Sequence record: NZ_CP102531.1
Reading direction: 5' to 3' (one strand)
Origin: a plasmid
Length of the DNA: 64,000 bases
The notes beneath the pieces were generated by a model, which was not told the origin of the DNA, did not search any database, and saw only the letters and a list, made by a program, of their open reading frames with translations. The translations under genes and the position numbers were made by a program. The stretch's first letter is position 1. Every line of letters starts with the position of its first letter. Of the stretch, positions 7,471 through 36,982 are shown piece after piece.

Positions 7471-7478
7471 CTCCAAAA

Positions 7479-8825: not shown

Positions 8826-8833
8826 GCTTTCCT

Positions 8834-9979: not shown

Positions 9980-10014
9980 ATCAGTCCCTCCTTTCCATGT
10001 CTTTTACATCATCA

Positions 10015-10245
10015 TTAATGAAACCCAGGGGCTTCATCATGTCCTTCTTTTTTAAGTAGCTTCGCAATGTCTTCATAAGTTAGATGGCTCTCAGATAACA
10101 ACGCGTCAACCTTATCGGCTTTTAAGACTTTGAGATCACGCCTAGCGGCCGTCAGTTGTTGCTGCACCTTTTTTTGCTGCTCTTCTAGTTCTTTGATCCG
10201 GTTCTCTTTACTCTTGATTCGCTTTTCCAGACTCGTACTTGCCAT
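10015..10245 (-). CDS. small coiled-coil protein (76 aa)
   Basis: ORF track; heptad-rich sequence; no family assigned. Confidence 0.35.
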   Translation of the reverse strand: MASTSLEKRIKSKENRIKELEEQQKKVQQQLTAARRDLKVLKADKVDALLSESHLTYEDIAKLLKKEGHDEAPGFH

Positions 10246-10262
10246 TATTGATCGCTCCTTTA

Positions 10263-10787: not shown

Positions 10788-10800
10788 CGTCTTCCTCCTT

Positions 10801-15751: not shown

Positions 15752-16043
15752 AAATTCTTAGCCCGTTCATTTGTTGGTAATGCAAGATGATGCCGATATA
15801 CTTTTCTAATGGCATTCCTTTTGGCCTGATCCAGCCAAATGCCAACACTGGCATATCCAATGGGATTAGCACATTACCGGCACTATCCATTGACCAGTGC
15901 AACTTCCAGACCAGGAAATAGATAATGCCCGCTGAATAGATGAATGCGATCGTGGCACAGATTAGTTGCCGCAAATCCATTGTGCCTATGATACGTTCTT
16001 TGTAGGTCTTGATTTCTTTGGGTACTCTCACGCGTAAAGCCAC
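15672..16043 (-). CDS. VirB3-like small membrane protein (PrgI-like), 123 aa
   Basis: Hydrophobic hairpin; directly upstream of and overlapping the VirB4 gene, as prgI does in pCF10. Confidence 0.5.
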   Translation of the reverse strand: MALRVRVPKEIKTYKERIIGTMDLRQLICATIAFIYSAGIIYFLVWKLHWSMDSAGNVLIPLDMPVLAFGWIRPKGMPLEKYIGIILHYQQMNGLRIYENRREVSLHVHKNRGKIKEYKEDRP

Positions 16044-16060
16044 TGTTACTCACTCCTTTC

Positions 16061-16912
16061 CTACATTGCTGTTGTCAGCGACTTCGCCCATGAGTTTGTT
16101 TGGAAGACCGCAAAAATTAGTAGAATTGAAAATCCCATCAATGATGCTATCAATGGAAGGACGCCACTTTTATCGACATTCGCAAATGCTGTTTTCATGA
16201 GGAATGGATAGAACAGCTGCACCATATAAATGAGGGTTCCTTGTATGGATACTGCCATGAAGCTCTTGAAGAAGTTTTTAGCAATCCCTGAAAACTCATG
16301 ATGGGGCATGGTTGCAATTGGAATAGGTGACACAGCCAAAAACACATACATCTGTAAAAACCGGCCGGTGACAACAACATTAACTAAGACTGTGGCAAGC
16401 ATGGTAATGAGCATGACAAAAAGAAGAAGCACCATGATCATCAGCTTCGTCCAAAAACCTTCTTTTACTAAGGGACTATAAATATCATCAACGCTAATAA
16501 CGGTGCCCATATGTCCAGAATTCACTAACTTACCGATACCCTGTGATAGCGTGATACTCACTTGCATAATGGCATTCATGAATAAATTCATGCTATCCAT
16601 TGCAATCTTACAAAAAGCCACCTTCACTAAGGCGGCTGAAATCAGCCTGACCCCTGCATCTGATCCACCTCCCATAGCTTCTACTTGTTCCGAAATTCGA
16701 TATAGTTCTAGCAACGCAAACAACGCCAGAATCATATATCCGACCGGCATCATCACATTAGTCTGGATCGTTGTTGCGAATCCGTATAAGTCCTTGCTCC
16801 ACCCTGCCAACGTTTCGGTAATGCCGTTAGCCTTTGCGGAACCAGAAACGGAGTTCAAGATAAACTTAATAAATCCCTTGATCGTGTTATCCACGCGGTT
16901 CCGCCTCCTCAC
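16061..16912 (-). CDS. VirB6-like polytopic membrane protein (PrgH/TraL-like), 283 aa
   Basis: Multiple TM segments; position. Confidence 0.55.
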   Translation of the reverse strand: MRRRNRVDNTIKGFIKFILNSVSGSAKANGITETLAGWSKDLYGFATTIQTNVMMPVGYMILALFALLELYRISEQVEAMGGGSDAGVRLISAALVKVAFCKIAMDSMNLFMNAIMQVSITLSQGIGKLVNSGHMGTVISVDDIYSPLVKEGFWTKLMIMVLLLFVMLITMLATVLVNVVVTGRFLQMYVFLAVSPIPIATMPHHEFSGIAKNFFKSFMAVSIQGTLIYMVQLFYPFLMKTAFANVDKSGVLPLIASLMGFSILLIFAVFQTNSWAKSLTTAM

Positions 16913-16913
16913 A

Positions 16914-17120
16914 TCACGTTAGTGAAATAGAGTTGAACAATGCTCCAGCAGCAATGATTAAACCGCCACCTGCAATTGTCCAGATACCACTTTGAATACC
17001 AGGCCCATTGTGATCCTTCAAAGCACCACCAAGACCAACCAAGCCCCAAGCGGCGTAAATAGAACCACCTGCAATAGCAAATTTTGACATTAAAGAAATC
17101 GCTTGAGATAAAACGTTCAT
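16914..17120 (-). CDS. small two-TM membrane protein of the T4SS (68 aa)
   Basis: Gly/Ala-rich double TM; position. Confidence 0.4.
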   Translation of the reverse strand: MNVLSQAISLMSKFAIAGGSIYAAWGLVGLGGALKDHNGPGIQSGIWTIAGGGLIIAAGALFNSISLT

Positions 17121-17137
17121 GTGTTGTTCCTCCTTAT

Positions 17138-19033
17138 TTATCGATATGTGTCTAATAGATTGACATCAGTCAGGATATCCGAACCCTGTTCGTTCTCCTT
17201 GACGTCATCATCCTTGGTTTCCTCTTGACTGACATTAGCCAGGAAATCTGACTCTGATTTGGATTCTTCTGTTTCTACCTCACCACCTTTGTTGTTCTCG
17301 CTTTTAAGTTGAGGCTGATATACATAGTCTGAGTGATCCGTTTGAAGCTCCTTGTACCGTGGATGTTTTTCCAACGAATATTTTTGCGACAAAAATGGCG
17401 GCACACCTCTGAGCATGTAAATACTCTGGTCGCCGCCAATTCGATCGACTTCATCAGGCGCTAACAAATCACGCGCGATTTTGTCGTAGTTTTGGTTGAA
17501 TGAGCCATTATTGCCTTTGGATTCACCATAACGCTGAACGTCTATCGTTCCTTTGCCAAGAATCTTGGAAATGTACTGAGCGGTTTCACTGTCGTGTCCG
17601 CCAAGGTACAGCAGTGAATCCGAGGCACCGAGAATCGCCTGGTATGACTTTGGATAACGTTCTTTGAGCTGGCTGAGTTCCTGCACAATTGGCACACAGA
17701 AAATGCCCCGTGAACGCAAGGTATTGATACGCTTGTCAAATTGTGGAATCTGTCCACTGTTTGCAAACTCGTCCTGCCAACAAACGACTGTTTCATTAAG
17801 CCGGCCGTTGGCCTGATGGTCAGCACGTTCTACCAAAGTAGTAAACAATGTTTGGTAAACCAAGCTGACCAAGAAATTAAACGTTTCACTTTGATCAGGT
17901 AGGATCAAAAATAGAATCCGTTTCTCTTCTCCCAATTTTTCAAGTTCTAATGTATCGTCACTGGTAATATCAATAATGCTAGGCACATCAAACGGTGCTA
18001 AACGAACACCAAGGGAAATGACGATACTCATGGCTGTTTTGGCTGGTGCGAGTTTGAAGATACCATATTGTTTAAGCCCAAACGCATCCGGGAAGTCCTT
18101 TTTGAATTCTTCAAATATTAAGTCAAGTGGCGTTGTGTTCCCACCAGCGTCCTCCTCAATTGTTGCTGCTCTGACTAAGTCCAAAACATTGGGTACGTTG
18201 GCAACAACACGGTTGTCAGGATTGCCAGACTCTAAACGTAAATAATCAAACAAGGCTTGCATGAGCGCTTTTTCGCCTTTATCAAAGAACGGATCGCTTT
18301 TACTTTGCGGTGAGGTTGTGTTTTGCATGATAGCATTCACAACTTCAATGACATCATCCTCATTGTTGATATAAGCGAATACATTGAAATGATCAGTGTG
18401 TTTGCGAGTCACCAAATCAAAGACCTTAATCTTATAGCCAGACTTCTCAAAAAAGTTACCCACCCATCTAAGCGTCTGTCCTTTGGTATCAGTAACAACA
18501 TAGGAGCTGGAACGCTGCAATAGATTAGGTACGACAACGGTTCTGGTTTTACCAGAACCAGCACCCCCGATGACCGTCACAAATTGATTTCGCTGCAGTT
18601 TCATTGGCCGTTTATGATCCAAGTCATTCAAATACAGCTTTTCCGTGGCCGTCATAATCAGGTTGTTATCTGGGTTTTTGGTATCCTCAAATGGGAGAAT
18701 ATCCTTATGAGTCCCCCATTTTGCGCTCCCGTGTTCCTCACCTGGTCGATAATTTTTCTTATTGGTCAAGGCATATAAAACTACCAGCGCTACAACTGCC
18801 AGTAGAATAAGACCACCTAGGAATGGTTTGCCATTGAAAGTCGGCGGCCACCAAGAAACCTTGCCAAGATTGTTAGACACGTACAGTATTTTGTCGAGTA
18901 TAGACTTAGCGTCTTTGTCCTGGACGTTATAGGCGGCTCGCGTTAAACCACTGCCAACGATATATACCGCAGAACTACCAATAGCCACAAGGCCGAAATT
19001 CCAGACTAGGTTTTTCGCTTTTTCTTTGTCCAT
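17138..19033 (-). CDS. type IV coupling protein (VirD4/TraG/PcfC family), 631 aa
   Basis: N-terminal TM helices; Walker A VIGGAGSGKT. Confidence 0.85.
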   Translation of the reverse strand: MDKEKAKNLVWNFGLVAIGSSAVYIVGSGLTRAAYNVQDKDAKSILDKILYVSNNLGKVSWWPPTFNGKPFLGGLILLAVVALVVLYALTNKKNYRPGEEHGSAKWGTHKDILPFEDTKNPDNNLIMTATEKLYLNDLDHKRPMKLQRNQFVTVIGGAGSGKTRTVVVPNLLQRSSSYVVTDTKGQTLRWVGNFFEKSGYKIKVFDLVTRKHTDHFNVFAYINNEDDVIEVVNAIMQNTTSPQSKSDPFFDKGEKALMQALFDYLRLESGNPDNRVVANVPNVLDLVRAATIEEDAGGNTTPLDLIFEEFKKDFPDAFGLKQYGIFKLAPAKTAMSIVISLGVRLAPFDVPSIIDITSDDTLELEKLGEEKRILFLILPDQSETFNFLVSLVYQTLFTTLVERADHQANGRLNETVVCWQDEFANSGQIPQFDKRINTLRSRGIFCVPIVQELSQLKERYPKSYQAILGASDSLLYLGGHDSETAQYISKILGKGTIDVQRYGESKGNNGSFNQNYDKIARDLLAPDEVDRIGGDQSIYMLRGVPPFLSQKYSLEKHPRYKELQTDHSDYVYQPQLKSENNKGGEVETEESKSESDFLANVSQEETKDDDVKENEQGSDILTDVNLLDTYR

Positions 19034-19518
19034 CAGCGCTCACGTTCCTTGCTACGCTGTCGCGGCTTTTTCTCTTTTTGATTGCGTTCCTTTGCGGTCA
19101 CTTTAGCCTTTTCAATCTTTTCTTGAAGCGTTTGGCCGTGTTCGGGTGTTTTGTCAAAGTCCTTAACAACCTTCTGCAAAACAAGTTGAACTCGGTCTAC
19201 ATCAGCACCCTTAAAAAAGACATGGTACATGCCCGTTTCCTTGTCTCGGCGGATAGAAAAGTCAACGTGATACTTTTTAAACTTCTTTCCGAGCGCGCGC
19301 AGATCGGTTTTACTAATATCCACGTGTTCTAGCGCACCCCTTTTTTGCAATTCCGCAATGTTTTGTTTACCAGTCGTCCGCTGATGATGGATTGCTTGTT
19401 TGCTCATATCCATTGCTTTACTTGGCAACTTGACGGCCAGTGCTTTAAGGAGCGCTTGCGCGGACAAGGTGCTTAACCGTAGAACATACTCTGCTGCTTG
19501 GTTGTCCATTTGATTCAC
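19033..19518 (-). CDS. PcfB-like DUF3801 protein, 161 aa
   Basis: Pattern and position immediately upstream of the T4CP, as pcfB-pcfC in pCF10. Confidence 0.5.
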   Translation of the reverse strand: MNQMDNQAAEYVLRLSTLSAQALLKALAVKLPSKAMDMSKQAIHHQRTTGKQNIAELQKRGALEHVDISKTDLRALGKKFKKYHVDFSIRRDKETGMYHVFFKGADVDRVQLVLQKVVKDFDKTPEHGQTLQEKIEKAKVTAKERNQKEKKPRQRSKERER

Positions 19519-19527
19519 CTACCCTTT

Positions 19528-21075
19528 TTAGACCGTTTCACTGACTGTTACGGTCAAATTTTGCGTTGTTGTTTGGCCGAATTTATCCGTCACGGTATAA
19601 GTCAGCACATAGCTGCCAGGTTTACTGGTATCAACCGAACCTTCGACATCAACAGTGACATCGCCATAAGAACTGGTAGCCGTAACACTAGCCTTTGGAT
19701 CAAAGTGATCGCCAACTTTGAGTTTTGTCGGTACTTTAGACAGATCAAGGGTTGGCTTGTCAGCCACAACGTTGATAGTTACTTCCTTGACGGTCTTCTG
19801 TCCAAACTTGTCAGTGGCTGTATAAGCAAGCTCATAGCTACCAGGCTTGCTGGTGTCAACTGATCCATCTACAGCCACAATCACATCGCCATAAGGACTA
19901 ACCGCTGTGACATTGGCCTTCGGGTTAAACTGGTCTCCCACCTTGAGTTCCGTTGGAACCTTCGACACATCAAGTGTCGGTGCCGTGGCAAACACCGTAA
20001 CCGAACGTTTCAGCGTTGTCACAGCACCATTCTTATCAGTGACGGTATAAATTAGTTCGTAATCACCAAGTTTGCTGGTATCAACGTCTCCTGCAACCTT
20101 GATTTCCGTTGTGAGGTCACCATCTTGATAATCATCAGCCGTAACACCTTGTAACGGATCAAAGGCATGACCAACCTCAGTTTGATTGTTCCCCGAGACA
20201 TGAATAACGGGAGCGTCATTAGTCACGACAACATCACGCGTAGCACTCGTTTTGTGCCCTGCGCTGTCTGTCACTTGGTAGGTCACTTGATAAGTCCCCT
20301 CCGTGTTAACGTCCACAGTGCTGCATAACACAACCTTGTTGGTCAAATCACCATCTTTTACATCATGAGCACTTACACCGTCCATTAAATTGAAGGATTT
20401 TTGACCTAAATGCAGATGCAGGTCATCAGCAAAGGATATGGTCGGGGCTTGGTCAACTGGTGCTGGTGTTGGATTCGGATCTGGCGTTGGGTTTGGCTCT
20501 GGTGTTGGCGTTGGATTCGGATCTGGCGTCGGGTTTGGCTCTGGTATTGGTTCCGGCGCTGGATTTGGTGTTGAACTAGGTTCCACCGATGGCGTCGTCT
20601 TGGTATCAGTCGTCTGTTTATCTGTTAACGGTTTAGGTTCAGGCGTTGTTCCTGTATTGTCTGCCGCTTTTGGCGTGTTCTGTTCCGCTGTTGCCTGATC
20701 TGCCAACGAAATAAGGCTTTGACTATTACTCGACTCAAGCTGTTTGCTCAAATCATTTTTACTGAAAGGAAAGGCGACTACTGTTTGATCACTTTTATCG
20801 CTATTCGGCAGATCCGGAGCCAGGGCATCTTTTATGGTCTGATCGGCTTTGTTAGAGGAAGGCTTTGTGTTCTTCTGTTTTTGCTCGACCTTTTTTGACG
20901 GCGTCCGCCATTGCTTAGATGGAGTGCTACTTTTCTTGACTGATTGCGAAGCGGGGGCAGCGTTTAACTGATAAGCCGTATAGCCGCCGCCTCCCAAGAC
21001 AATCGCACTTATCAGCAAGATTGCTGCTGTTTTCTTTTTGTTGTTTGCCATGAATGAATCCTCCTTTTTCCGCAT
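19528..21075 (-). CDS. secreted surface protein with Pro-rich PxPxP linker and three to four Ig-like repeats, 515 aa, no LPXTG
   Basis: Signal peptide MANNKKKTAAILLISAIVLGGGG; PEPIPEPNPTPDPNPTPTPEPNPTPDPNPTPAP linker; repeated units of about 80 aa (...DGD..T..V....D....G.Y...Y.V.D..G...). Confidence 0.6.
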   Translation of the reverse strand: MRKKEDSFMANNKKKTAAILLISAIVLGGGGYTAYQLNAAPASQSVKKSSTPSKQWRTPSKKVEQKQKNTKPSSNKADQTIKDALAPDLPNSDKSDQTVVAFPFSKNDLSKQLESSNSQSLISLADQATAEQNTPKAADNTGTTPEPKPLTDKQTTDTKTTPSVEPSSTPNPAPEPIPEPNPTPDPNPTPTPEPNPTPDPNPTPAPVDQAPTISFADDLHLHLGQKSFNLMDGVSAHDVKDGDLTNKVVLCSTVDVNTEGTYQVTYQVTDSAGHKTSATRDVVVTNDAPVIHVSGNNQTEVGHAFDPLQGVTADDYQDGDLTTEIKVAGDVDTSKLGDYELIYTVTDKNGAVTTLKRSVTVFATAPTLDVSKVPTELKVGDQFNPKANVTAVSPYGDVIVAVDGSVDTSKPGSYELAYTATDKFGQKTVKEVTINVVADKPTLDLSKVPTKLKVGDHFDPKASVTATSSYGDVTVDVEGSVDTSKPGSYVLTYTVTDKFGQTTTQNLTVTVSETV

Positions 21076-21341
21076 TAATATGCTTCAACAAATCGCTTAA
21101 ACTCGTTCTGAGGGCGAACATAAGCCACGATCACGCGCTCTTTGCTTGGTAACACCCGCACGATCTCACCAATACAAGTTGTATCTGGCAGAATAGGCCA
21201 ACCGGTTTCGATACTTAACACGGCATGACGCAACTTCAACATCAATGCCTTCTCCTTTGGGGGTGGGAATCTGATTTCAAGAAGACCATTGTGCCGCTTA
21301 GCTTCCTTGATGTCTTTTGTTTGAAGAACCAAATTGAACAT
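21075..21341 (-). CDS. hypothetical protein (88 aa), second gene of the tra operon
   Basis: ORF track. Confidence 0.4.
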   Translation of the reverse strand: MFNLVLQTKDIKEAKRHNGLLEIRFPPPKEKALMLKLRHAVLSIETGWPILPDTTCIGEIVRVLPSKERVIVAYVRPQNEFKRFVEAY

Positions 21342-21352
21342 ATGATCACCTC

Positions 21353-21631
21353 TTATATCAAGTTTTTTGGGACGGACTTAATGCGTTCTCCGCTAATCAC
21401 TAGACTGCCGTCTTTTTTTAATTCAGCTGACACCACCTTTAGAACCAAAACATTTTTCAGCTGGTTAGGCGGCTTAATATTGCCAATCACCACCGTCATA
21501 CCAGGCTTAATTGGATAATCAGCATGATCCTTAACCCATGAAGCTCGGACTCGATAAGAAAGAGCATCATGATCTTTCGAAATCAACTTCAAATTGCGAT
21601 CATGTAACCAAATACCTACAGGTTCAGCCAT
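21353..21631 (-). CDS. hypothetical protein (92 aa from internal Met MAEPVG...), first gene of the tra operon
   Basis: AAAGGAGA RBS 6 nt upstream of the Met at 21631; the longer 132-aa ORF (to 21751) lacks an RBS. Confidence 0.4.
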   Translation of the reverse strand: MAEPVGIWLHDRNLKLISKDHDALSYRVRASWVKDHADYPIKPGMTVVIGNIKPPNQLKNVLVLKVVSAELKKDGSLVISGERIKSVPKNLI

Positions 21632-21828
21632 GTTCAGTCTCCTTTCTTTAACGCAAAAAACACCTGCAATTAGCTGGCATTTGGCGTTCATTATTTTGGC
21701 ATTAGCCAAGGCCGCTTCGTGGAATCGAACCACGTTTCCCAGTAGCGGCATTTGTTGTCCAGTGACACACCATTAAATTGCGTAGCAGAGCACAACTTTG
21801 GTAAAATGGAGGTACGTTAATACCTAAT

Positions 21829-21856
21829 AAAAACGCGCCCTAGGGCGCGCTTTTTG
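21829..21856. terminator. bidirectional rho-independent terminator (aaaaacgcgccctagggcgcgcttttt)
   Basis: Perfect GC palindrome flanked by A-run and T-run. Confidence 0.6.
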
Positions 21857-22013
21857 CTTGTTGACGATGTTTTTCAAGAGCTTCCTGTCGTTCCTCTTCA
21901 CGAGAACACAATCCGCTAATCCGAATAGTTGCAAGCTCACACAAAAGGATAAAGCCTAGTAATACCCAAAAACTGCATTTGAAAATCAGCCACAACATCT
22001 TAATCTCTCCTCA

Positions 22014-22199
22014 CTTTTCAGTTTTTGAATTGTAGGACGGTAAAAAGCCTGAATCATAAAGTCTTTTCTCAGTAGCAATCAACCGACACACCAATGTTGA
22101 GGGTCGTTCCTTAGTAACCTGACAAAGAGCTTTAAGCTGCTGCTTCTCTTCTGGCGTCAAGGTGATTTGGTAACGTTGATTATTTTTGTTGGCTGTCAT
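22014..22199 (-). CDS. small ribbon-helix-helix-like protein (62 aa, MTANKNNQRYQITLTPEEKQQLKAL...)
   Basis: GGAGGA RBS upstream; the beta-strand-then-helix start (YQITLTPEEKQQL) is RHH-like; the IS6 copy abuts its promoter region at 22216. Confidence 0.35.
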
Positions 22200-22215
22200 C
22201 TTTCCTCCATTCAAA

Positions 22216-23033
22216 GGTTCTGGTGCAAATTTTCCTCGCTGACTTGATTTTAGTATACTGGGTGCCAAGAAACGAGGGATTGCGCGCATGAATCACTTTA
22301 AGGGACGCCACTTTCAAAAGGACATCATCTTAGTAGCCGTTGGCTACTATTTCAGATTCAGTCTCAGCTATCGTGACATCGTTGAATTGCTTCGGGATCG
22401 GGGTATCACTGTTCATCACACCACGGTCATGCGTTGGGTTCATCACTATGGCCCCATCTTTAAGGCTCTATGGCGTCGGCATCAAACAGCTCACGCTAAA
22501 AGTTGGCGAATCGATGAGACCTATATTCGAGTTAAAGGCCGTTGGGCCTATTTGTATCGCGCTATTGACAGTAACGGTTTGACCATGGATTTTGAGCTAC
22601 GAAAACACCGCGATTATACCGCATCCTATCACTTTTTGAAGCGTCTCTTGACGACCAATGGTCGGCCTGATCGATTAGTCACTGATCAATATCGGGCAAC
22701 ACTGAAAGCAGTGAAGCACCTGATAAAGCAAGACTATTTGAGCAAATCAGCCCACCAATGTTCCAAATATCGAAATAATTTGATTGAACAGGACCACCGA
22801 TTCATTAAACGTCATCGTGTCCGCTCAGCAAGCTTTCAAAGCATTCGAACCGCTAGTGCAACGTTGAGCGGTGTGGAAATTGTTCACGCAATACGCAAAA
22901 GAACCCGACGAGAGTTAAGTCTCATCGGGTTCTCAGTCGTGGACGAATTAGAAGCATTGTTAGCTGCTTAACCTTTAACATAGTATCAATAGCTGGGTAG
23001 ATGTCCATCTCTTAGACTGTTTGCACCAGATCC
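22216..23033 (+). mobile_element. IS6-family insertion sequence, copy 2
   Basis: Same terminal inverted repeats and protein-identical transposase as copy 1; inverted relative to copies 1 and 3. Confidence 0.85.
22288..22971 (+). CDS. tnp: IS6-family transposase (227 aa)
   Basis: Protein-identical to the 1691-2374 product. Confidence 0.9.
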   Translation: MNHFKGRHFQKDIILVAVGYYFRFSLSYRDIVELLRDRGITVHHTTVMRWVHHYGPIFKALWRRHQTAHAKSWRIDETYIRVKGRWAYLYRAIDSNGLTMDFELRKHRDYTASYHFLKRLLTTNGRPDRLVTDQYRATLKAVKHLIKQDYLSKSAHQCSKYRNNLIEQDHRFIKRHRVRSASFQSIRTASATLSGVEIVHAIRKRTRRELSLIGFSVVDELEALLAA

Positions 23034-23045
23034 TTGTGAAGTAGT

Positions 23046-23786
23046 ATGGCAACCACAGCAGAAATATTGCAACAAGTGGCGGCAGGGCAATTAAGTCCGA
23101 CGGTGGCTGCCCAACAGTTAGAAGCAGGCAAAACAGCGGCATTAGGTTTTGCCAATGTCGATTTAGATCGTCAACGCCGCAATGGCTTTCCTGAGGTCAT
23201 CTACGGTGCTGGTAAGACGGCAACCCAAATTGTGGGTATCGTGCAAGCCTTGTCCCAACAGACGTTGCCGATTTTAACGACCCGGTTATCCGCAGAAAAA
23301 TTCGCGGCACTCCAACCGGCGTTACCAACGGCTGTCTATCATGCCACTGCGCAGTGTATGACGGTCGGAGAACAACCGGCACCGAAAACACCAGGGTACA
23401 TTGCCGTGGTGACGGCGGGGACCTCCGATCAACCGGTCGCTGAAGAAGCAGCAGTAACCGCGGAAACTTTTGGCAATCATGTTGAACGGGTCTATGACGT
23501 GGGTGTTGCAGGAATCCACCGACTGTTTGCCAAGTTGGATGTGATTCGTGGTGCCCGGGTGGTCATTGTGATCGCGGGCATGGAAGGTGCGCTGGCCAGT
23601 GTCGTTGGTGGACTAGTTGATAAGCCCGTGATTGCAGTGCCGACCAGCGTTGGTTATGGTACTAGTTTTCAAGGTATGACCGCGCTATTGACCATGCTCA
23701 ATAGCTGTGCGTCGGGGATTACCGTTGTCAACATTGATAACGGCTTTGGTGCCGCCTACTCAGCTAGTATGATCAATCAAATGTAA
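23046..23786 (+). CDS. larB: LarB, PurE-like carboxylase/hydrolase of nickel-pincer nucleotide cofactor biosynthesis (246 aa)
   Basis: PurE-like C-terminal half [34 protein letters not shown]; followed by larC, larD, larE. Confidence 0.8.
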
Positions 23787-23816
23787 GATTCAGTTAACTG
23801 AACAAGGAGAAGATAA

Positions 23817-25079
23817 ATGCAAACACTTTATTTAGACGCTTTTTCGGGGATTAGCGGTGATATGTTTCTGGGCGCGTTACTCGATTTAGGACTTGATTTT
23901 GAGCAATTAAAAACCGAATTGGCTAAGTTACACGTGCACGGTTATGAATTAACGCAGCAACGGGAAGCCCAGAGTAGCATCTATGGCACGAGCTTTGATG
24001 TTCAGGTTGCGGGTGGTAAGGACCATGGTTTTGTGGAACATCACCATCATCAGCATGAAGCTGGGCATCATCATGATCATGAAGCGCGTCATTTAGCTGA
24101 TATTGAGGCGTTAATTGACGGCAGTGACTTATCAGATACCGTGAAACACCACGCGAAAGCGATCTTTATGGAAATTGCGCAAGCGGAAGCAGCGGTTCAT
24201 CACATGCCACTAGCTGAAGTTCATTTCCATGAAGTGGGCGCGTTGGATTCGATTGTTGATATTGTGGGCTGCTGTATTGGGTTGGAATTGATGCAGATTG
24301 ATACCATCATGGCTTCACCGTTAAGTGATGGTAGTGGTTTTATTAACGTTGCCCATGGTCAGATGCCAGTTCCCGTCCCAGCCGTGATGCAGATGCGAGT
24401 TGGTAGTGCCATTCCGATTCAACAACGGTTGGATGTGCATACTGAATTGATTACCCCCACTGGGATGGGCTTGGTCAAGACGCTCGTACGTGAATTCGGA
24501 CCGTTACCGGAAAATGCCGTGCCAACTAAAGTTGGTTATGGGTTTGGTAAACGGGACACGGGCGGTTTCAATGCACTGCGAGCCGTATTATTCGAAAAAA
24601 AAAAACTAAGTCAGCAAATCGTTAACCGGACGGCTGATGCTGTCTTAATGATTGAAGCTAATCTAGATGATCAGACGGGTGAAGGACTGGGGTACGTGAT
24701 GAACCAGTTATTAACGGCGGGCGCATACGATGTGTTCTTCACGCCCATTCAGATGAAGAAAGATCGGCCGGCGACAAAGTTAACGGTTTTGGGAAACGTT
24801 AACGATAAGGACTTACTGACTAAGTTGATTTTACAAGAAACGACGACGATTGGTGTACGTTACCAGACGTGGCAACGTACTATTATGCAACGGCACTTCC
24901 TGACGGTCGCAACGCCGTACGGTGACGTTCAAGTTAAAGTGGCGACATATCAAGATATTGAGAAGAAGATGCCGGAATATGCGGATTGTGCCCAGCTGGC
25001 GCAGCAATTTCATATTCCGTTTAGAACGGTCTACCAGGCAGCCTTAGTGGCGGTAGATCAATTAGATGAGGAGGCGTAA
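23817..25079 (+). CDS. larC: LarC, CTP-dependent nickel insertase (DUF111), full-length 420 aa
   Basis: N-terminal MQTLYLDAFSGISGDMFLGALLDLG typical of the LarC/DUF111 family; His-rich stretch HHHHQHEAGHHHDHEARH. Confidence 0.8.
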   Translation: MQTLYLDAFSGISGDMFLGALLDLGLDFEQLKTELAKLHVHGYELTQQREAQSSIYGTSFDVQVAGGKDHGFVEHHHHQHEAGHHHDHEARHLADIEALIDGSDLSDTVKHHAKAIFMEIAQAEAAVHHMPLAEVHFHEVGALDSIVDIVGCCIGLELMQIDTIMASPLSDGSGFINVAHGQMPVPVPAVMQMRVGSAIPIQQRLDVHTELITPTGMGLVKTLVREFGPLPENAVPTKVGYGFGKRDTGGFNALRAVLFEKKKLSQQIVNRTADAVLMIEANLDDQTGEGLGYVMNQLLTAGAYDVFFTPIQMKKDRPATKLTVLGNVNDKDLLTKLILQETTTIGVRYQTWQRTIMQRHFLTVATPYGDVQVKVATYQDIEKKMPEYADCAQLAQQFHIPFRTVYQAALVAVDQLDEEA

Positions 25080-25800
25080 TTTTTTGGTACATCAGTTGAT
25101 TGCTGAATTTATGGGCACAGCCCTAATGATTATTTTTGGGGTGGGTGTTCATTGTAGTTCCGTATTAAAGGGAACCAAGTATCGGGGTTCCGGTCATATT
25201 TTTGCCATTACAACTTGGGGTTTTGGGATTAGCGTTGCCTTATTCATTTTTGGCAATGTTTGCATTAACCCGGCAATGGTTTTGGCGCAGTGTCTATTAG
25301 GAAACATCGCATGGTCCTTATTTATTCCGTATTCCGTTGCGGAAGTGCTTGGTGGGGTCGTGGGCTCAGTGATCGTTTGGATCATGTATGCTGATCATTT
25401 TAAAGCCTCAACAGATGAGATTTCACCCATTACAATTCGGAACTTATTCTGTACGGCACCAGCCGTTCGTAACTTGCCGCGGAATTTCTTTGTGGAATTA
25501 TTTGATACATTTATTTTTATTTCGGGTATTTTAGCGATTTCTGAGATTAAAACGCCGGGAATCGTGCCAATTGGCGTTGGCCTACTTGTATGGGCCATTG
25601 GGATGGGACTTGGTGGTCCAACCGGATTCGCAATGAACTTAGCCCGAGATATGGGGCCCCGGATTGCCCACGCCATCTTACCAATTGCCAATAAAGCCGA
25701 TAGTGATTGGCAATACGGTATCATTGTGCCAGGAATTGCGCCCTTTGTCGGGGCAGCAATTGCCGCTTGGTTTATGCATGGCTTTTTTGGAATTAATTAA
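25066..25800 (+). CDS. larD: LarD, MIP-family aquaglyceroporin (lactic acid channel), about 240 aa
   Basis: MIP-channel hydrophobic repeats with IAEFMGTALMIIFGVG start; the annotated ATG overlaps larC by 14 nt, so the true start may be a downstream TTG/ATG. Confidence 0.7.
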   Translation: MRRRNFLVHQLIAEFMGTALMIIFGVGVHCSSVLKGTKYRGSGHIFAITTWGFGISVALFIFGNVCINPAMVLAQCLLGNIAWSLFIPYSVAEVLGGVVGSVIVWIMYADHFKASTDEISPITIRNLFCTAPAVRNLPRNFFVELFDTFIFISGILAISEIKTPGIVPIGVGLLVWAIGMGLGGPTGFAMNLARDMGPRIAHAILPIANKADSDWQYGIIVPGIAPFVGAAIAAWFMHGFFGIN

Positions 25801-25824
25801 ATTAAATAGAAGAAGGGTTTTATT

Positions 25825-26655
25825 ATGGCAACATTAGCAACAAAAAAAGCAACGTTAGTAGCAGCATTAAAGGATTTACAACGGGTCACCGTGGCCTTTT
25901 CTGGTGGAATCGACAGTACCTTAGTTTTGAAGATGGCCCTCGATGTTTTAGGCCGTGACAATGTGACCGCTGTGGTTGCGAACTCTGAATTATTTATGGA
26001 TGAAGAATTCGATAAAGCGATGAGTTTAGCCGAAGAACTAGGTGCTAACGTTCAAGGAACTACGCTAGACTACTTGAGCGATGACCACATCAAGAACAAC
26101 ACGCCTGATAGCTGGTACTATGCGAAGAAGATGTTCTACAGCCGGTTGAATGACATTGCGGCTAATAACGGTAGTGCCGCTGTCCTAGACGGTATGATCA
26201 AGAATGATGAAAATGATTATCGTCCTGGTTTGAAGGCCCGTAGTGAAGCGGGGGCCCGGAGCTTGTTACAAGAAGCTGATTTCTTCAAGACTGACGTTCG
26301 GGCCTTGGCACAAGAACTCGGTTTGACGAACTGGAATAAAGTGGCGTCATGCTCTGTATCTTCACGGTTCCCATACGGGACGACGTTGACACATGACAAT
26401 ATTGCTCAAGTAATGGCCGCCGAAAAATATTTGCGTAGTTTAGGTTTTCCAACGGTCCGGGTTCGTTTCCACGATGATATTGCGCGGATCGAATTACCAG
26501 AAGCACGGATTGGTGATTTCTTAGTCTTTAACGACCGCGTTAACCGTCAATTGCAATCACTTGGATTCCGCTACGTTACCCTTGACTTAGGTGGCTTCCG
26601 TAGTGGCCGAATGAATGATACGTTGACCAAGGCACAATTGGCCACTTTCGCCTAG
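25825..26655 (+). CDS. larE: LarE, PP-loop ATP-dependent sulfur transferase (276 aa)
   Basis: PP-loop SGGIDS motif (VAFSGGIDSTLVL). Confidence 0.8.
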   Translation: MATLATKKATLVAALKDLQRVTVAFSGGIDSTLVLKMALDVLGRDNVTAVVANSELFMDEEFDKAMSLAEELGANVQGTTLDYLSDDHIKNNTPDSWYYAKKMFYSRLNDIAANNGSAAVLDGMIKNDENDYRPGLKARSEAGARSLLQEADFFKTDVRALAQELGLTNWNKVASCSVSSRFPYGTTLTHDNIAQVMAAEKYLRSLGFPTVRVRFHDDIARIELPEARIGDFLVFNDRVNRQLQSLGFRYVTLDLGGFRSGRMNDTLTKAQLATFA

Positions 26656-26797
26656 GTCTAATCAAATTAATGATAGTGGTGTCGGGATTAATCGGAGATG
26701 GGCGGCTGAACGGCGGTGATCATGGTTCATTCGCCTATCCGATGATAATCGTAACCCCAGCCGATACGCACATGTTGCGATTATCGCCTGACACCCC

Positions 26798-26838
26798 AAA
26801 AAGCGCAGTTCAAGGCCGTCCTTGAACTGCGTTTTTCG
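26798..26838 (+). terminator. rho-independent terminator downstream of larE
   Basis: gcgcagttcaagg-ccgtc-cttgaactgcg then TTTTT. Confidence 0.6.
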
Positions 26839-26929
26839 TATCTTCATTTTTAGATCAACAGGCGTCAAAAGTCACGACGAGTTTACCAACGACTTGACCA
26901 GCTTGGAGTTGTTGTAAACCAGTTACAAG

Positions 26930-27747
26930 GGATCTGGTGCAAACAGTCTAAGAGATGGACATCTACCCAGCTATTGATACTATGTTAAAGGTTAAGCAGC
27001 TAACAATGCTTCTAATTCGTCCACGACTGAGAACCCGATGAGACTTAACTCTCGTCGGGTTCTTTTGCGTATTGCGTGAACAATTTCCACACCGCTCAAC
27101 GTTGCACTAGCGGTTCGAATGCTTTGAAAGCTTGCTGAGCGGACACGATGACGTTTAATGAATCGGTGGTCCTGTTCAATCAAATTATTTCGATATTTGG
27201 AACATTGGTGGGCTGATTTGCTCAAATAGTCTTGCTTTATCAGGTGCTTCACTGCTTTCAGTGTTGCCCGATATTGATCAGTGACTAATCGATCAGGCCG
27301 ACCATTGGTCGTCAAGAGACGCTTCAAAAAGTGATAGGATGCGGTATAATCGCGGTGTTTTCGTAGCTCAAAATCCATGGTCAAACCGTTACTGTCAATA
27401 GCGCGATACAAATAGGCCCAACGGCCTTTAACTCGAATATAGGTCTCATCGATTCGCCAACTTTTAGCGTGAGCTGTTTGATGCCGACGCCATAGAGCCT
27501 TAAAGATGGGGCCATAGTGATGAACCCAACGCATGACCGTGGTGTGATGAACAGTGATACCCCGATCCCGAAGCAATTCAACGATGTCACGATAGCTGAG
27601 ACTGAATCTGAAATAGTAGCCAACGGCTACTAAGATGATGTCCTTTTGAAAGTGGCGTCCCTTAAAGTGATTCATGCGCGCAATCCCTCGTTTCTTGGCA
27701 CCCAGTATACTAAAATCAAGTCAGCGAGGAAAATTTGCACCAGAACC
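26930..27747 (-). mobile_element. IS6-family insertion sequence, copy 3
   Basis: Identical to copies 1 and 2; same orientation as copy 1. Confidence 0.85.
26992..27675 (-). CDS. tnp: IS6-family transposase (227 aa)
   Basis: Protein-identical to the other two copies. Confidence 0.9.
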   Translation of the reverse strand: MNHFKGRHFQKDIILVAVGYYFRFSLSYRDIVELLRDRGITVHHTTVMRWVHHYGPIFKALWRRHQTAHAKSWRIDETYIRVKGRWAYLYRAIDSNGLTMDFELRKHRDYTASYHFLKRLLTTNGRPDRLVTDQYRATLKAVKHLIKQDYLSKSAHQCSKYRNNLIEQDHRFIKRHRVRSASFQSIRTASATLSGVEIVHAIRKRTRRELSLIGFSVVDELEALLAA

Positions 27748-27764
27748 TCAGAAAGGACTTCAAT

Positions 27765-28658
27765 ATGAAATTAACAACAAAATGGTTTTTAGCCCTCAGT
27801 ACAGTATTAGCAATTAGTATCAGTGGTTGTTCAGCCGTTCAAGGATCGAACACAAGTCAATCAAGTACAACCAAATCCGCTGCTTCCTCTGCTACATCGA
27901 CGAGGACTACTGAGACTGCGCAGACAAACAGTGATCTTGCCAACTTGCCATTTGATCTGACAAAGTACCCGCAAAACTACACAACGCTTAATCAAAACGT
28001 TCCAATCTTCGTAAATGGTTTTAAGCAAACAGTAGCTGCCGCCCAGAAAGCGAAAACCACACGCGCTCAAACTTACTTTGAAGGCTTGGATGATCTAGGA
28101 AGAACGCAAAGTGTTTCTGCCATTGTGACCTACAGTATAATGCACAGTCACGCAAGCTCTGTACGCAAGCGACCAGCCTTTCCTAAAACCACGAAGGTTG
28201 CCGGTGAGTACGCTGATGGCGTGTATAACAAAAACCTGCAACAATGGTTTGGCCGCAGCAACAATAACCGAATGGTCCAACTTAACGGTTATCGAGGTTA
28301 TCTGTATAATAAAAGCCACCTGTTAGCGTGGTCGCTAGGTGGCGATATGCAGACTCATAATGTGATTCTTGGCACTCGTGCTCAAAATGTTGGTACCAAT
28401 GACCAACGAAATCCCGGTGGTATGGCTTACACAGAAACTCTGACGCGCAATTATCTTAGCTCACACCAAGACGATGCGGTCGCTTATCAGGTTATTCCCG
28501 TGTACGTTGGCCAAGAACTGGTACCGCGTGGCACACACGTTTTGGTGCAGTCGATTAACAATCCATCACAGTTTCAAGCTAATGTCTGGGTCTTCAATAC
28601 GCAATCAGGGGTAACTATTAACTACAATAACGGCTCATTTCAACTGAATGGAGAGTGA
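27765..28658 (+). CDS. lipoprotein DNA/RNA non-specific endonuclease (DNA-entry-nuclease-like), about 297 aa from Met-11
   Basis: Signal peptide with ISGCS lipobox; Ser/Thr-rich linker; C-terminal nuclease-like block YNKSHLLAWSLGG...GTRAQNVGTNDQRNPGG; RBS before ATG 27765 (the ORF track starts earlier at 27735). Confidence 0.55.
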   Translation: MKLTTKWFLALSTVLAISISGCSAVQGSNTSQSSTTKSAASSATSTRTTETAQTNSDLANLPFDLTKYPQNYTTLNQNVPIFVNGFKQTVAAAQKAKTTRAQTYFEGLDDLGRTQSVSAIVTYSIMHSHASSVRKRPAFPKTTKVAGEYADGVYNKNLQQWFGRSNNNRMVQLNGYRGYLYNKSHLLAWSLGGDMQTHNVILGTRAQNVGTNDQRNPGGMAYTETLTRNYLSSHQDDAVAYQVIPVYVGQELVPRGTHVLVQSINNPSQFQANVWVFNTQSGVTINYNNGSFQLNGE

Positions 28659-29023
28659 TCGAATTGAATCGTGAAGTGGTTCGTAAACTAGTCCAAGTCT
28701 ATATCGACAGGAACAAGCTTAGCAATCCAGAATTTGCCAAACAAGCCAAGATCAATGATCGGACTGTACGTCGCTTGCTAAACTCTGAGGACAGTATTTC
28801 TGACCAAACCTTAGAGAAAATGGCGGCTGTTTGCGAAAAACGTAAATTTGCCGTCATCGGCTTTAGCACGGGGAAGATTTATTTTCGGGGTGAACATCAC
28901 GCTGACTGCACCCGGTGGATCAATGAACAAGCAGTCCAGATAAAAAAAGCCCACAGCCATAAGAAAATCGCACTTAATATGAAAGAACCAATGATCATTC
29001 AGCGCTTGCCATTTGCATCTTAG
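28655..29023 (+). CDS. HTH-containing small protein (122 aa) overlapping the nuclease gene stop by 4 nt
   Basis: ATGA overlap with the upstream stop, suggesting translational coupling; HTH-like segment LSNPEFAKQAKINDRTVRRLLN. Confidence 0.45.
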   Translation: MIELNREVVRKLVQVYIDRNKLSNPEFAKQAKINDRTVRRLLNSEDSISDQTLEKMAAVCEKRKFAVIGFSTGKIYFRGEHHADCTRWINEQAVQIKKAHSHKKIALNMKEPMIIQRLPFAS

Positions 29024-29030
29024 GGCCTGT

Positions 29031-29501
29031 CTAGTATCTTTTAAGAACTATCTTCAGGAAGGCCAATACAACCATTTGAAGACTGCTGTTAAGGGCGCGT
29101 TCACAGTTTTTCCAAAGTCGCCGACATTTCTCTAGCCAACTCCATGAACGTTCAATGATCCATCGTTGCGGTAACACCGTGAACATATGCAACTCGTTGC
29201 GTTTAGCTACCGTCGTCTTAGCATTCAAAATGAGCTTCACCTGATCCGCAAAGTCATTGCCAGTGTAGCCACCATCAACCATGACATGCTGAACCAGCTC
29301 TAAATTTTGGCTAGCCAAACTAAACATAGCCAATGCACCTGAACGATCTAATACATTAGCTCGTATCACGAGAATGGCTTGTGGTAAACCGTTAATATCA
29401 ACCGCCATATGACGCTTAATCCCTGAAATCTTTTTGGCGCCATCGTAGCCACTATTTTTCGTTAAATCAGTGGTTTTAACACTTTGAGCATCAACAATCA
29501 C
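29031..29501 (-). CDS. IS5-family transposase OrfB (DDE domain, 156 aa)
   Basis: [21 protein letters not shown]... typical IS5/IS427 catalytic part. Confidence 0.8.
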
Positions 29502-29885: not shown

Positions 29886-30512
29886 TCAGCAAAACATCTT
29901 TTGTAGATACCCTTTTTTAAGTTCTTGGAGTTTTTCAAGCTTACGCTGATGAAGAGCGATAGTGTCGTCTAACTGTTTGAAAAATGAGCCGATTTTTTGT
30001 TGTTCATCTACTATCTTAGGAACAACTAGTAGAGTATTAAAAAAATCAGTAGGTGCAATATTTAGTAACCCATGATTACGAGCCCCTTCTGCCGCATTCT
30101 TAGAAACCTCCCGGTACCATCTAGTGGTATCGTAATATGAAACTAGAAACTGAGAATTGATTTTCGTAGGTCTAAAGACTATATAAAGTGTCGATAGAAC
30201 GCCCATATCATACTTATCTAAACGCTTAATAGCGCCCCATGGATATCCATTTGAATAACTTTTATTATATGCAAACTCACCATTTTTAACTAAAAAATAT
30301 CCAGTAACATCACGACTCGCTACTTGCTTATTGAAAAAATCATTTTGATCTACCAAACCATCTTGTGCAGATATTGTTAGCGGAAGAGTCGACTCATTAT
30401 TTTTGTTTTTTCTAGTAACACGCTCTGAGATGCTAGATAACTTACGCTCTTCCCAAGGATCAGTAAACCCTTTAAATCTTAACTGCGGGTAACTAGCTTG
30501 TTGATCTTTCAT
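29886..30512 (-). CDS. hsdS: type I restriction-modification specificity subunit, half-size HsdS (single TRD, 208 aa)
   Basis: N-terminal conserved PQLRFKGFTDPWEERKL; one variable TRD; conserved central repeat LEKLQELKKGYLQKMF then a stop 6 nt from the IS5-family copy. Confidence 0.75.
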   Translation of the reverse strand: MKDQQASYPQLRFKGFTDPWEERKLSSISERVTRKNKNNESTLPLTISAQDGLVDQNDFFNKQVASRDVTGYFLVKNGEFAYNKSYSNGYPWGAIKRLDKYDMGVLSTLYIVFRPTKINSQFLVSYYDTTRWYREVSKNAAEGARNHGLLNIAPTDFFNTLLVVPKIVDEQQKIGSFFKQLDDTIALHQRKLEKLQELKKGYLQKMFC

Positions 30513-36049: not shown

Positions 36050-36961
36050 ATGCTTATTCATTCCATTTCAGAACTGATCGGTCATACGCCACTGATTGAT
36101 CTGCAAATCAACATTCCAAATCACAGTCACATTTACGCCAAACTGGAGATGTTTAATCCAGGAGGCAGCATCAAAGACCGCCTGGGCCAATACATGATTC
36201 AAGATGCGATTAATCGTGGTCAGGTAACTGAAGGTGTAACAACAATTATCGAACCTACTGCCGGCAATACCGGAATTGGGGTTGCCCTTGCCGCTCAACA
36301 ACACCATTTGCCAACCATTCTGGTCGTACCGGAAAAGTTCAGTTTTGAAAAACAACAATTGATGAAAGCCTTAGGGGCAAAATTAATCAACACCCCCAGT
36401 GATCAGGGCATCAAGGGCGCCATTGAAAAAGCAGAAGCGCTTCACGATCAAACTCCTAACAGTTTCGTTCCAATGCAATTCAAAAATCCGGCCAACCCTG
36501 ATACTTATTATCACACTCTGGCACCAGAGTTGCTTGACGACCTCAATGACCCAATTGACGCCTTTGTTGCCGGTGCGGGCAGTGGTGGGACATTTGCAGG
36601 CGTCGCTCGTTACTTAAAGGAGCAGAATCCGGCGACTCAAACCATCGTTGTGGAACCTGAAGGCTCAATTCTAAATGGTGGGCCTGCCCATCCCCATCGG
36701 ACTGAAGGCATCGGTGTTGAATTTGTCCCACCATTTTTTAAAGATGTTCAAATCGACAAAACGTTAACAATTGCCGATGCCGACGCCTTTCATCAAGTTA
36801 AGGAGCTTGCCAAGAAGCAGGGATTATTCATTGGCAGTTCAAGCGGGGCTGCTTTGGCTGCCAGCTTAAAGGTTGCCAAGGCACTTCCCGAGAATAGTAC
36901 CATTGTCACAATTTTTCCAGATAGCAGTGAACGTTACATGAGTGAAAATATTTATGATTAA
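36050..36961 (+). CDS. cysK: cysteine synthase / O-acetylserine sulfhydrylase (PLP-dependent, 303 aa)
   Basis: PLP-fold cysK/cbs family motifs (K in SIKDR; GNTGIG; GSSSGAA). Confidence 0.85.
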
Positions 36962-36982
36962 AAATAAAGTGAGGTTATTAAA

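Follow-up and report, generated by a model that had tools for sequence, protein, structure and literature searches.

A larA-less larBCDE segment between inverted IS6 copies on a Lacticaseibacillus plasmid, very probably a deletion derivative of a captured Lactiplantibacillus plantarum lar locus

Described lar loci and the gene content of the window

The lactate racemase locus of Lactiplantibacillus plantarum is reportedly organized as larR(MN)QO-larABCDE and corresponds to lp_0100-lp_0109 (Goffin 2005, Desguin 2014). A partial, transposase-flanked lar operon has been described on plasmid pBD-II of Lactobacillus casei BD-II, where it was attributed to horizontal transfer from L. plantarum; of 17 strains, BD-II was the only one listed with the lar cluster (Broadbent et al. 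2012, BMC Genomics 13:533). In another set of 34 L. paracasei strains, just 2 had the full 11-gene L. plantarum insert (Smokvina 2013). In this study, a 64-kb stretch of plasmid DNA, hereafter the window, was analysed over its whole length; it represents ~96% of a plasmid of ~66.8 kb and wraps nearly all of it, so that only ~2.8 kb, the repA region as in pLC2W, lies outside. The larA-less structure found in it is the one already published as the partial lar operon of pBD-II (NC_017476.1), which is the same DNA: window positions 21000-29500 match at 100.0% with a single 1-nt gap, and the two agree in gene set (five lar ORFs out of the six counted at the time), in being flanked left and right by transposase genes and in their L. 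plantarum origin. They differ in larC, with an A10 tract in pBD-II and A11 (one ORF) in the window, and in size, the window plasmid being larger: it has a lacTEGF segment, and its pilin-like gene contains more repeats. The structure of pBD-II recurs in pW56, pACT and pYAK, the larA-less form was found only in pBD-II-type backbones (four PLSDB records and about a dozen further contigs), and in a 16.7-kb comparison the 66,793-bp plasmid CP192308.1 differs from the window by a single A.

All four remaining lar genes lie on the plus strand and exceed their NCBIfam equivalog cut-offs. They are larB (23046-23786; pyridinium-3,5-biscarboxylic acid mononucleotide synthase, 308.7 bits against a cut-off of 175), larC (23817-25079; a single in-frame ORF of 420 aa matched by both the LarC1 and the LarC2 model), larD (25084-25800, with an open frame from the ATG at 25066; lactic acid channel of the MIP family, 427.6 bits against 390 for the equivalog 'D/L-lactic acid transporter LarD') and larE (25825-26655; ATP-dependent sacrificial sulfur transferase, 353 bits). 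Comparison with PDB entries showed 0-3 residue differences from the crystallised L. plantarum proteins: LarB differs from 7MJ0 at three residues, the LarC2 domain is 100% identical to 6BWO, and LarE differs from 5UDQ at two residues, the ASCSVSS stretch with the active-site cysteine being unchanged. The original prediction that larB, larC, larD and larE are intact thus holds. The poly-A tract of larC (24595-24605) is A11 in the window and A10, a frameshift site, in L. plantarum, and larC is consequently one ORF encoding a fused LarC. Relative to the L. plantarum locus, the four proteins share 99-100% identity, order and spacing are the same, and the same terminator and the same start of lp_0111 follow downstream; however, the window locus sits between IS6 elements on a plasmid in another genus, and it lacks larA (except 11 nt), the larA promoter, larR and larMNQO. 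The exact LarB protein is also encoded in five loci where it adjoins larA and thiM/D/E in the order lar-lp_0111-thiMDE, which is the gene order described for L. plantarum.

The lack of larA, larR and larMNQO, likewise read from the sequence beforehand, was confirmed by tblastn of the whole 64-kb window, in which LarA, LarR, LarMN, LarQ, LarO and NixA gave no match (best E 0.38-9). For LarA itself (PF09861/PF21113 lactate racemase) the best E was 7.6, and only the last 11 nt of the gene are left. A larA just outside the IS6-bracketed segment, which the original prediction had named as evidence against it, is absent from the 64-kb window as well. The divergent larR(MN)QO unit, comprising a Crp/Fnr activator and a Ni ECF transporter, is missing from the window together with the larA promoter, whereas larR, larMN, larQ and larO are present in plasmid pFAM18149.23 and in L. 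plantarum-type loci.

Junctions of the segment and the complete locus on pFAM18149.23

At the left edge, IS6 copy 2 (22216-23033, plus strand; tnp 22288-22971) has its IRR end toward larB and stops, as anticipated, 12 bp before the larB ATG at 23046. Of these 12 bp, 11 (23034-23044, plus strand) are the 3' end of larA with its TAG stop codon, and 1 nt follows: the right end of the IS abuts TTGTGAAGTAG, and homology with pFAM18149.23 and L. plantarum CXG9 begins exactly at 23034, inside the larA end, with ...GGCGTTAT before the junction and TGTGAAGTAG T ATG after it. Comparison with intact lar loci, as had been proposed, therefore placed the IS breakpoint 11 nt before the end of larA. At the right edge, a terminator scan and reading of the sequence located a GC-rich hairpin with T-runs (26804-26831, no strand assigned) between larE and the convergent ADH gene; this terminator is inherited from L. 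plantarum. It is followed by a 75-nt remnant of an lp_0111-type Zn-dependent oxidoreductase gene (Zn-ADH; 26855-26929, minus strand), consisting of the last 24 codons and the stop; in tblastn it matches chromosomal ADH residues 302-325 at 100% identity. Homology to the chromosome stops at 26929 in the window and in pFAM18149.23 alike, and IS6 copy 3 (26930-27747, minus strand; tnp 26992-27675) follows with its IRR end toward larE. Both edges of the segment thus cut through genes, of which 11 nt (larA) and 75 nt (Zn-ADH) are left, and this supports its reading as a remnant.

The complete locus is found in pFAM18149.23 (NZ_CP017264.1) of L. paracasei FAM18149 as IS6-hyp-larO-Q-MN-R-larABCDE-IS6, which has 5,031 bp more than the window (hyp, larO, larQ, larMN, larR and larA). 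Both share the fused A11 larC, and a single nucleotide differs in the 3896 nt of lar DNA (23034-26929). As pFAM18149.23 carries the whole locus with the same position of the larE-IS6 junction, and its left IS6 is 100% identical to copy 2 and in the same orientation, the window appears as a 5.0-kb deletion derivative, and of the two alternatives raised by the original prediction, the evidence supports the loss of larA by way of the IS. The segment between the IS6 copies of pFAM18149.23 is collinear with Lactiplantibacillus chromosomes, over 8,927 bp at 98.2% (L007) and over 8,929 bp at 99.35% (L089). In L089 coordinates the captures are nested: 2206-11901 in a JGI plasmid (L091), 2956-11880 in pFAM18149.23 and 7989-11880 in the window.

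We consider it very probable that the region is a decayed passenger segment, an IS6-anchored deletion derivative and not a purpose-built cassette. An 8.9-kb piece of L. plantarum chromosome (hyp-larO-larQ-larMN-larR-larA-larB-larC-larD-larE plus 75 nt of the next gene) would have been bracketed by two inverted IS6 on a Lacticaseibacillus plasmid, a state putatively kept in pFAM18149.23. Then 5,031 bp, from the exact IRR end of the left IS6 to 11 nt before the larA end, would have been deleted in the pBD-II/pW56/pACT/pYAK lineage, window included, either through intramolecular (cis) replicative transposition of the left IS6, or through a new IS6 insertion in larA and subsequent recombination between two direct copies; an IS6 cis-deletion mechanism has been described (Varani 2021, PMC7986276). 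Such a deletion would have removed the racemase, the lactate-responsive activator LarR with the larA promoter, and the nickel importer, leaving larB, larC, larD and larE untouched. With 1 substitution in 3,896 bp relative to pFAM18149.23 it is likely to be very recent, and the surviving genes may have had no time to decay.

Two observations weigh against this deletion account. The left flank of IS6 copy 2 is the conjugation module in the window and a repB fragment in pFAM18149.23, so that a one-step cis deletion cannot be traced on one backbone, and further IS6-mediated exchanges have to be assumed. In addition, the right-hand IS6 of pFAM18149.23 differs from copy 3 at 9 positions while occupying the same junction, which suggests that the IS body was exchanged or converted. 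The reading as a remnant also has to accommodate four intact ORFs, including an in-frame A11 larC that would give full-length LarC without frameshifting; judged from sequence, both would fit continued use. However, at a 1-nt difference from pFAM18149.23, intact ORFs are uninformative on selection.

IS6 copies and the reshuffling of the plasmid

The window holds three IS6 copies, each 818 bp and mutually 100% identical in sequence comparison, and copy 1 (1629-2446, minus strand) is direct relative to copy 3 and inverted relative to copy 2. Assignment to the IS6 family follows from a DDE transposase of IS6 type (NCBIfam IS6 equivalog NF033587, 227 bits against a cut-off of 125; PF13610 also matched), an element length of ~800 bp and 14-bp terminal inverted repeats (GGTTCTGGTGCAAA and GGATCTGGTGCAAA). 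Comparison of the 8-bp flanks showed no direct target duplication at any of the three copies, the pairs being GTTTCAAG/CTTATCAG, CATTCAAA/TTGTGAAG and CTTTCTGA/CTTGTAAC, with no match within a copy or across copies. Absence of target duplications is expected after cointegration, recombination or intramolecular events (Varani 2021, PMC7986276). The signatures of simple insertion, cis deletion and trans inversion, in which the right flank of one copy equals the left flank of another, were all searched for and none matched, thus no single transposition step can be reconstructed from these flanks.

Two identical inverted IS6 copies, one on each strand, do bracket the lar genes as originally predicted, but the further proposal of a mobilised cofactor-maturation cassette, i.e. 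a pseudo-compound transposon, is not sustained. Copies in functional IS6 pseudo-compound transposons are always direct repeats (Varani 2021, PMC7986276), whereas copies 2 (plus) and 3 (minus) around larBCDE are inverted; copies 1 and 3 are direct, but bracket 25.3 kb. The window lineage resembles IS26/IS257-type pseudo-compound transposons and translocatable units in belonging to the same IS family, in its identical copies without target duplications, in the deletion by recombination of direct copies (pLC2W) and in inversion between inverted copies, and differs from them in that a larBCDE unit with inverted copies is not a functional architecture. That the 5.5-kb IS6-larBCDE-IS6 unit was built without larA as a composite transposon moving between replicons is suggested by the identical IS6 copies around the genes and by known passenger-carrying structures of IS6 elements (PMC7986276), yet it is hardly credible, as cointegrate resolution requires direct copies (PMC7986276), the outer ends lack an 8-bp duplication in the present as well as the flipped arrangement, and the inner junctions cut larA and lp_0111. 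Moreover, no larA-less unit was found in a differing sequence context, every occurrence lying in the single pBD-II-type backbone, and the formal transposon-like span is the 26.1 kb from copy 1 to copy 3, the loss of which leads to pLC2W.

The three identical copies would keep reshuffling the plasmid through homologous recombination. The conjugation module (2447-22215, minus strand), identified from the pBD-II annotation as type IV secretion genes and a relaxase, is flanked by the IRL ends of copies 1 and 2 and runs the other way round than in uninterrupted backbones: the equivalents of window positions 22215 and 1628 are separated by 86 bp in pWX2 and pLPCN-1 and have the opposite relative orientation there. 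Recombination between copies 1 and 2 would invert this module. Apart from lacking 2447-27747, pLC2W matches the window at 100% identity, a layout expected of recombination between copies 1 and 3, which would delete 25.3 kb; this plasmid has likewise been termed a deletion form (Douillard 2013). A metagenome contig (L095) with the order relaxase end-IS6-larB may be a flipped isomer of the segment, but is only suggestive because it comes from a 3.9x short-read assembly spanning the 818-bp repeat.

Expression, possible uses of the remaining genes and significance

The outward IS promoter suggested in the original prediction was not confirmed: in a relaxed scan, the larB side of the IS6 offered only 8-of-12 matches to the consensus, and from a hybrid candidate formed by IRR and flank transcription would begin only past the larB ATG. 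Within the IS6, the best promoter-like match (10/12) points out of the opposite, IRL end, and the consensus scan gave 9 matches against 9.5 expected from shuffled sequence. Any larBCDE transcripts would have to start in the IS6 transposase gene, which has the same orientation, and read through into larB, and larB would no longer be coupled in translation to the stop codon of larA. The larA-less locus is predicted to yield no lactate racemase, and the LarD lactic-acid channel would be the only product with a plausible stand-alone role. As far as sequence allows, the four intact helper genes are probably idle.

The genes might still be kept for a use other than lactate racemization. One possibility is that they supply the nickel-pincer cofactor to another enzyme of the host chromosome, either a distant LarA-superfamily racemase/epimerase or a cofactor user other than LarA, for instance an NphT-type aldo-keto reductase (AKR). 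LarB, LarC and LarE are intact and near-identical to L. plantarum enzymes of biochemically proven function, larC is present as the fused A11 allele, non-LarA NPN enzymes were discovered via larBCE clusters without larA (PMC13524815), and LarA homologues acting on other substrates are known (PMC7583248). We nevertheless regard this use as very unlikely: a visible breakpoint inside larA explains the absence of the gene, the near-zero divergence deprives the intact ORFs of weight as a sign of selection, regulator and promoter are gone, the segment is lost in the sibling strain LC2W, the lar cluster was listed for a single strain among 17 (Broadbent 2012), and lar genes are rare in L. paracasei (2 of 34 strains; Smokvina 2013). 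Genes for a nickel transporter, an AKR, an ornithine cyclodeaminase or a LarA-like protein are absent from the plasmid, and no candidate gene for an NPN-using enzyme of the NphT/AKR or ornithine cyclodeaminase type was found beside larBCE, whose neighbours (with larD) are IS6 transposase, a DNA/RNA endonuclease, type IV secretion genes and a type I restriction-modification system. A LarA scan of genome contigs returned only orthologues of at least 80% identity among the 80 matches listed, from Lactiplantibacillus, Loigolactobacillus, Latilactobacillus, Sporolactobacillus, Streptococcus and others, and no L. paracasei LarA locus was among those 80 close orthologues. We thus see a very slender chance that the BD-II/W56/Actimel/Yakult lineage still makes NPN via IS6-driven larBCE for an unrecognised NPN-dependent enzyme of the L. 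paracasei chromosome, in which case the fused, frameshift-independent larC allele of the window plasmid might help. Retention for LarD alone, with acid export or uptake independent of nickel and LarA and with larB, larC and larE as hitch-hikers, is just as doubtful. The channel requires no cofactor and LarD exceeds its equivalog cut-off, but the segment is dispensable in LC2W and the deletion is too recent for retention to be inferred.

Taken as a deletion remnant of a captured operon, the locus implies no new biology unless the cofactor is made and used, and its significance is mostly practical. Searches for larBCE clusters without larA, aimed at new nickel-pincer enzymes, would flag it, and in that setting it would be a false positive made by IS deletion. 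The deletion also explains why widely used probiotic L. paracasei strains can have lar genes and still be expected to lack a lactate racemase encoded on the plasmid, a point of relevance to D-lactate safety annotation. The plasmid also illustrates, in a clear-cut case, how IS6 elements erode and reshuffle an operon acquired by horizontal transfer.

The larBCDE segment and its plasmid

By its sequence the window belongs to a pBD-II-type plasmid of Lacticaseibacillus paracasei: positions 2441-39362 share 99.97% identity with pBD-II 1-36921, and pBD-II, pW56 and the Actimel-strain plasmid align end to end with window 21000-29500 at 99.8-100%. The window's two ends are connected by a repA region of ~2.8 kb, as arranged in pLC2W, and the 66,793-bp plasmid CP192308.1 equals the window but for one base over the 16.7 kb compared; the window therefore represents ~96% of the replicon. 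Four genes, larB (23046-23786), larC (23817-25079), larD (25084-25800) and larE (25825-26655), lie between IS6 copy 2 (22216-23033, plus strand) and copy 3 (26930-27747, minus strand). Together with copy 1 (1629-2446, minus strand), these 818-bp elements are 100% identical to one another and encode a transposase that matches the IS6 equivalog. All four Lar products exceed their NCBIfam equivalog cut-offs and differ by 0-3 residues from the structure-solved L. plantarum counterparts. Only 12 bp separate the end of copy 2 from the larB ATG, and tblastn with LarA, LarR, LarMN, LarQ, LarO and NixA as queries gave no match across the whole window. The original prediction had described identical inverted IS6 copies around larBCDE, a 12-bp gap and no larA, larR or larMNQO, and coordinates, NCBIfam and tblastn agree that this was accurate in every detail.

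A partial plasmid-borne lar operon is already known. Broadbent et al. described five of the six lar genes, 98-99% identical to those of L. plantarum and flanked at either end by transposase genes. Their conclusion was that the genes had been acquired by horizontal transfer; they assigned no role to them. Of the 34 L. paracasei strains studied by Smokvina et al. 2013 (PMC3716772), 2 had the full 11-gene L. plantarum insert, which includes larABCE and a Ni/Co transporter. What is added here is the exact breakpoints, an intact plasmid-borne progenitor-like form, the bookkeeping of IS6 orientation and target duplications, the relation to pLC2W and the variation in a larC tract.

Origin of the lar DNA and loss of larA

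Sequence comparison identifies Lactiplantibacillus plantarum as the evident source of the lar DNA. Five loci (L089, a Lactiplantibacillus chromosomal lar locus, L090 and L092-L094) encode a LarB identical to that of the window, and all have the order larO-larQ-larMN-larR-larA...larE-lp_0111-thiM/D/E, the same lar-lp_0111-thiM/D/E order as given for L. plantarum in Figure S2B of Broadbent et al., and the lar segment of the window is 99.7% identical to one of the five. Chromosomal homology begins at 23034, within the last codons of larA, the 12-base "spacer" before larB being TTGTGAAGTAG, the larA end including its stop codon, plus T. It ends at 26929, within a convergent lp_0111-type Zn-ADH gene, of which the last 24 codons and stop remain (26855-26929). 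Both edges are thus breakpoints that fall inside genes, and neither bounds a designed unit. A mosaic lar locus is found on L. plantarum plasmids. The one at 7737-12621 and 16233-17243 of the CXG9 plasmid NZ_CP069169.1 matches the window at 99% identity from the larA end, through larB, to near the larC end. Past larC it has larE and then a MIP channel gene; megablast gives no match there to larD-larE of the window, and the Ni transporter close by is of the NixA type and takes the place of larMNQO.

An intact relative is the plasmid pFAM18149.23 (NZ_CP017264.1) of L. paracasei FAM18149, with the order IS6(+)-hyp-larO-larQ-larMN-larR-larA-larB-larC-larD-larE-IS6(-) and inter-IS DNA collinear over 8.9 kb with a Lactiplantibacillus chromosome. 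Its larE-IS6 junction is that of the window base for base, the IS6 on its left shares 100% identity and orientation with the window's left-hand copy and is identical to the other copies too, and between the two plasmids the lar DNA shows 1 nt of difference in 3,896; therefore the window is a deletion derivative from which 5,031 bp are gone. The deletion ran from the exact IRR end of the left IS6 to a point 11 nt short of the end of larA. Such an IS-end-anchored deletion is a product of intramolecular cis replicative transposition by IS6, and the same product results when IS6 inserts and the direct copies then recombine (Varani et al. 2021, PMC7986276). The loss of larA through an IS, suggested in the original prediction, is thus borne out by the larA-end breakpoint at the IS6 IRR and by the intact form on pFAM18149.23, and the comparison with intact lar loci that it had proposed places the IS breakpoint 11 nt before the larA end. 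A JGI metagenome plasmid (L091) covers even more of this part of the chromosome. In L089 coordinates the captured segments are nested (L091, 2206-11901; pFAM18149.23, 2956-11880; window, 7989-11880), which fits progressive trimming. The deletion history that we infer would comprise one step; the outer flank of copy 2 is unlike that of the pFAM18149.23 IS6, and 9 positions of the right-hand IS6 are not the same in the two plasmids, therefore further IS6-mediated exchanges must have moved or converted the module.

The larC gene of the window has an A11 tract (24595-24605) at the larC1/larC2 programmed -1 frameshift site, giving a single in-frame LarC of 420 aa. A11 also occurs in pFAM18149.23 and two metagenome contigs; A10, with split ORFs, is found in L. 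plantarum-type loci, pBD-II, pW56 and the otherwise identical CP192308.1. Across the genomes compared, loci with larC split into the -1 frame at the tract number 18 of 19 in Lactiplantibacillus, 5 of 5 in Loigolactobacillus and 3 of 3 in Latilactobacillus, and LarC is encoded in a single frame in most loci of Sporolactobacillus and many of those of Streptococcus. The difference between A10 and A11 could stem from genuine slippage or from missequencing of the homopolymer.

IS6 and rearrangement of the plasmid

IS6-larBCDE-IS6 was considered as a mobile cassette. In functional IS6 pseudo-compound transposons the flanking copies are in direct orientation, because cointegrate resolution requires direct copies (Varani et al. 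2021, PMC7986276). Here copies 2 and 3 lie in inverted orientation, examination of the flanks revealed no 8-bp target duplication at any of the three IS6 copies, and the larA-less unit is confined to the pBD-II-type backbone (four PLSDB records plus about a dozen more contigs). The mobilised cofactor cassette of the original prediction is accordingly not supported. Copies 1 and 3 are in direct orientation and bracket 25.3 kb that hold the conjugation module, an IS6 and larBCDE. At 100% identity pLC2W corresponds to the window less exactly 2447-27747, which marks its deletion as the evident outcome of recombination between copies 1 and 3; Douillard et al. 2013 likewise termed pLC2W a deletion form. 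The 19.8-kb conjugation module between copies 1 and 2 (2447-22215) lies in the reverse orientation to that in pWX2 and pLPCN-1, whose backbones are uninterrupted, and its junction lacks 86 bp that they have. The opposite isomer is suggested by a metagenome contig (L095), a low-coverage short-read assembly that spans the repeat.

Elsewhere on the plasmid, a 2621-aa ORF (50089-57954, minus strand) for a SpaA/isopeptide pilin-like surface protein contains 14 tandem copies (50294-54288) of a unit of 282 bp (94 aa), which share 84-92% identity with the reference copy except for the last, at 67-69%. At 4,764 nt the pBD-II gene is far shorter, and sister plasmids therefore differ in repeat number. 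A complete lactose PTS operon (40170-44779; lacT antiterminator, lacE IICB, lacG phospho-beta-galactosidase, lacF IIA) is flanked by two inverted IS5-family copies (38786-39655 and 45383-46252; region 38784-46252). This operon is lacking in pBD-II, and Douillard 2013 described a lactose-PTS remnant in pACT, pYAK and pLC2W. Genes for cysK-like, cystathionine lyase-like and serine acetyltransferase proteins (36050-38690) adjoin type I restriction-modification genes. Beside an IS5 copy, an hsdS ORF (29886-30512, 208 aa) with one Methylase_S match only may be truncated.

Expression and present role of larBCDE

LarA, LarR, the larA promoter and a nickel importer are missing from the window. The co-oriented transposase stop codon lies 75 nt upstream of larB with no terminator-like hairpin found between them, therefore read-through from the transposase gene would be the likeliest source of any larB transcript, and most likely of any larBCDE transcript. 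Promoter-like matches toward larB are weak (8/12), and an IRR/flank hybrid would start transcription past the ATG. The strongest sigma-70-like match in the region, TTCAAA-16-TATAAT (10/12), lies inside IS6 antisense to the transposase, at 22613-22640 (minus strand) in copy 2 and 27323-27350 (plus strand) in copy 3, with an equivalent site in copy 1; it exits via the IRL end, toward the T4SS operon from copy 2 and toward an endonuclease gene from copy 3, not toward larB. Copy 2 sits 16 nt 5' of the first small conjugation-operon ORF, directly before the ribosome-binding sequence GGAGGAAAG, so it separates the conjugation operon from the sequence upstream of it.

The segment shows virtually no divergence from the intact version, so the four intact ORFs are uninformative on selection. 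NPN, the nickel-pincer cofactor made by LarB, LarC and LarE, might still be produced for some chromosomal enzyme not yet recognised, a possibility that we regard as very improbable; non-LarA users of NPN are on record (PMC13524815). Neither a nickel transporter nor any further candidate for an NPN-using enzyme (LarA-like, AKR or ornithine cyclodeaminase) is encoded on the plasmid, and the matches listed from a genome scan with LarA are close LarA orthologues, none of them from L. paracasei. Most likely, larBCDE is a recent and largely idle remnant, of which LarD, the lactic-acid channel, is the sole product with a plausible stand-alone role.
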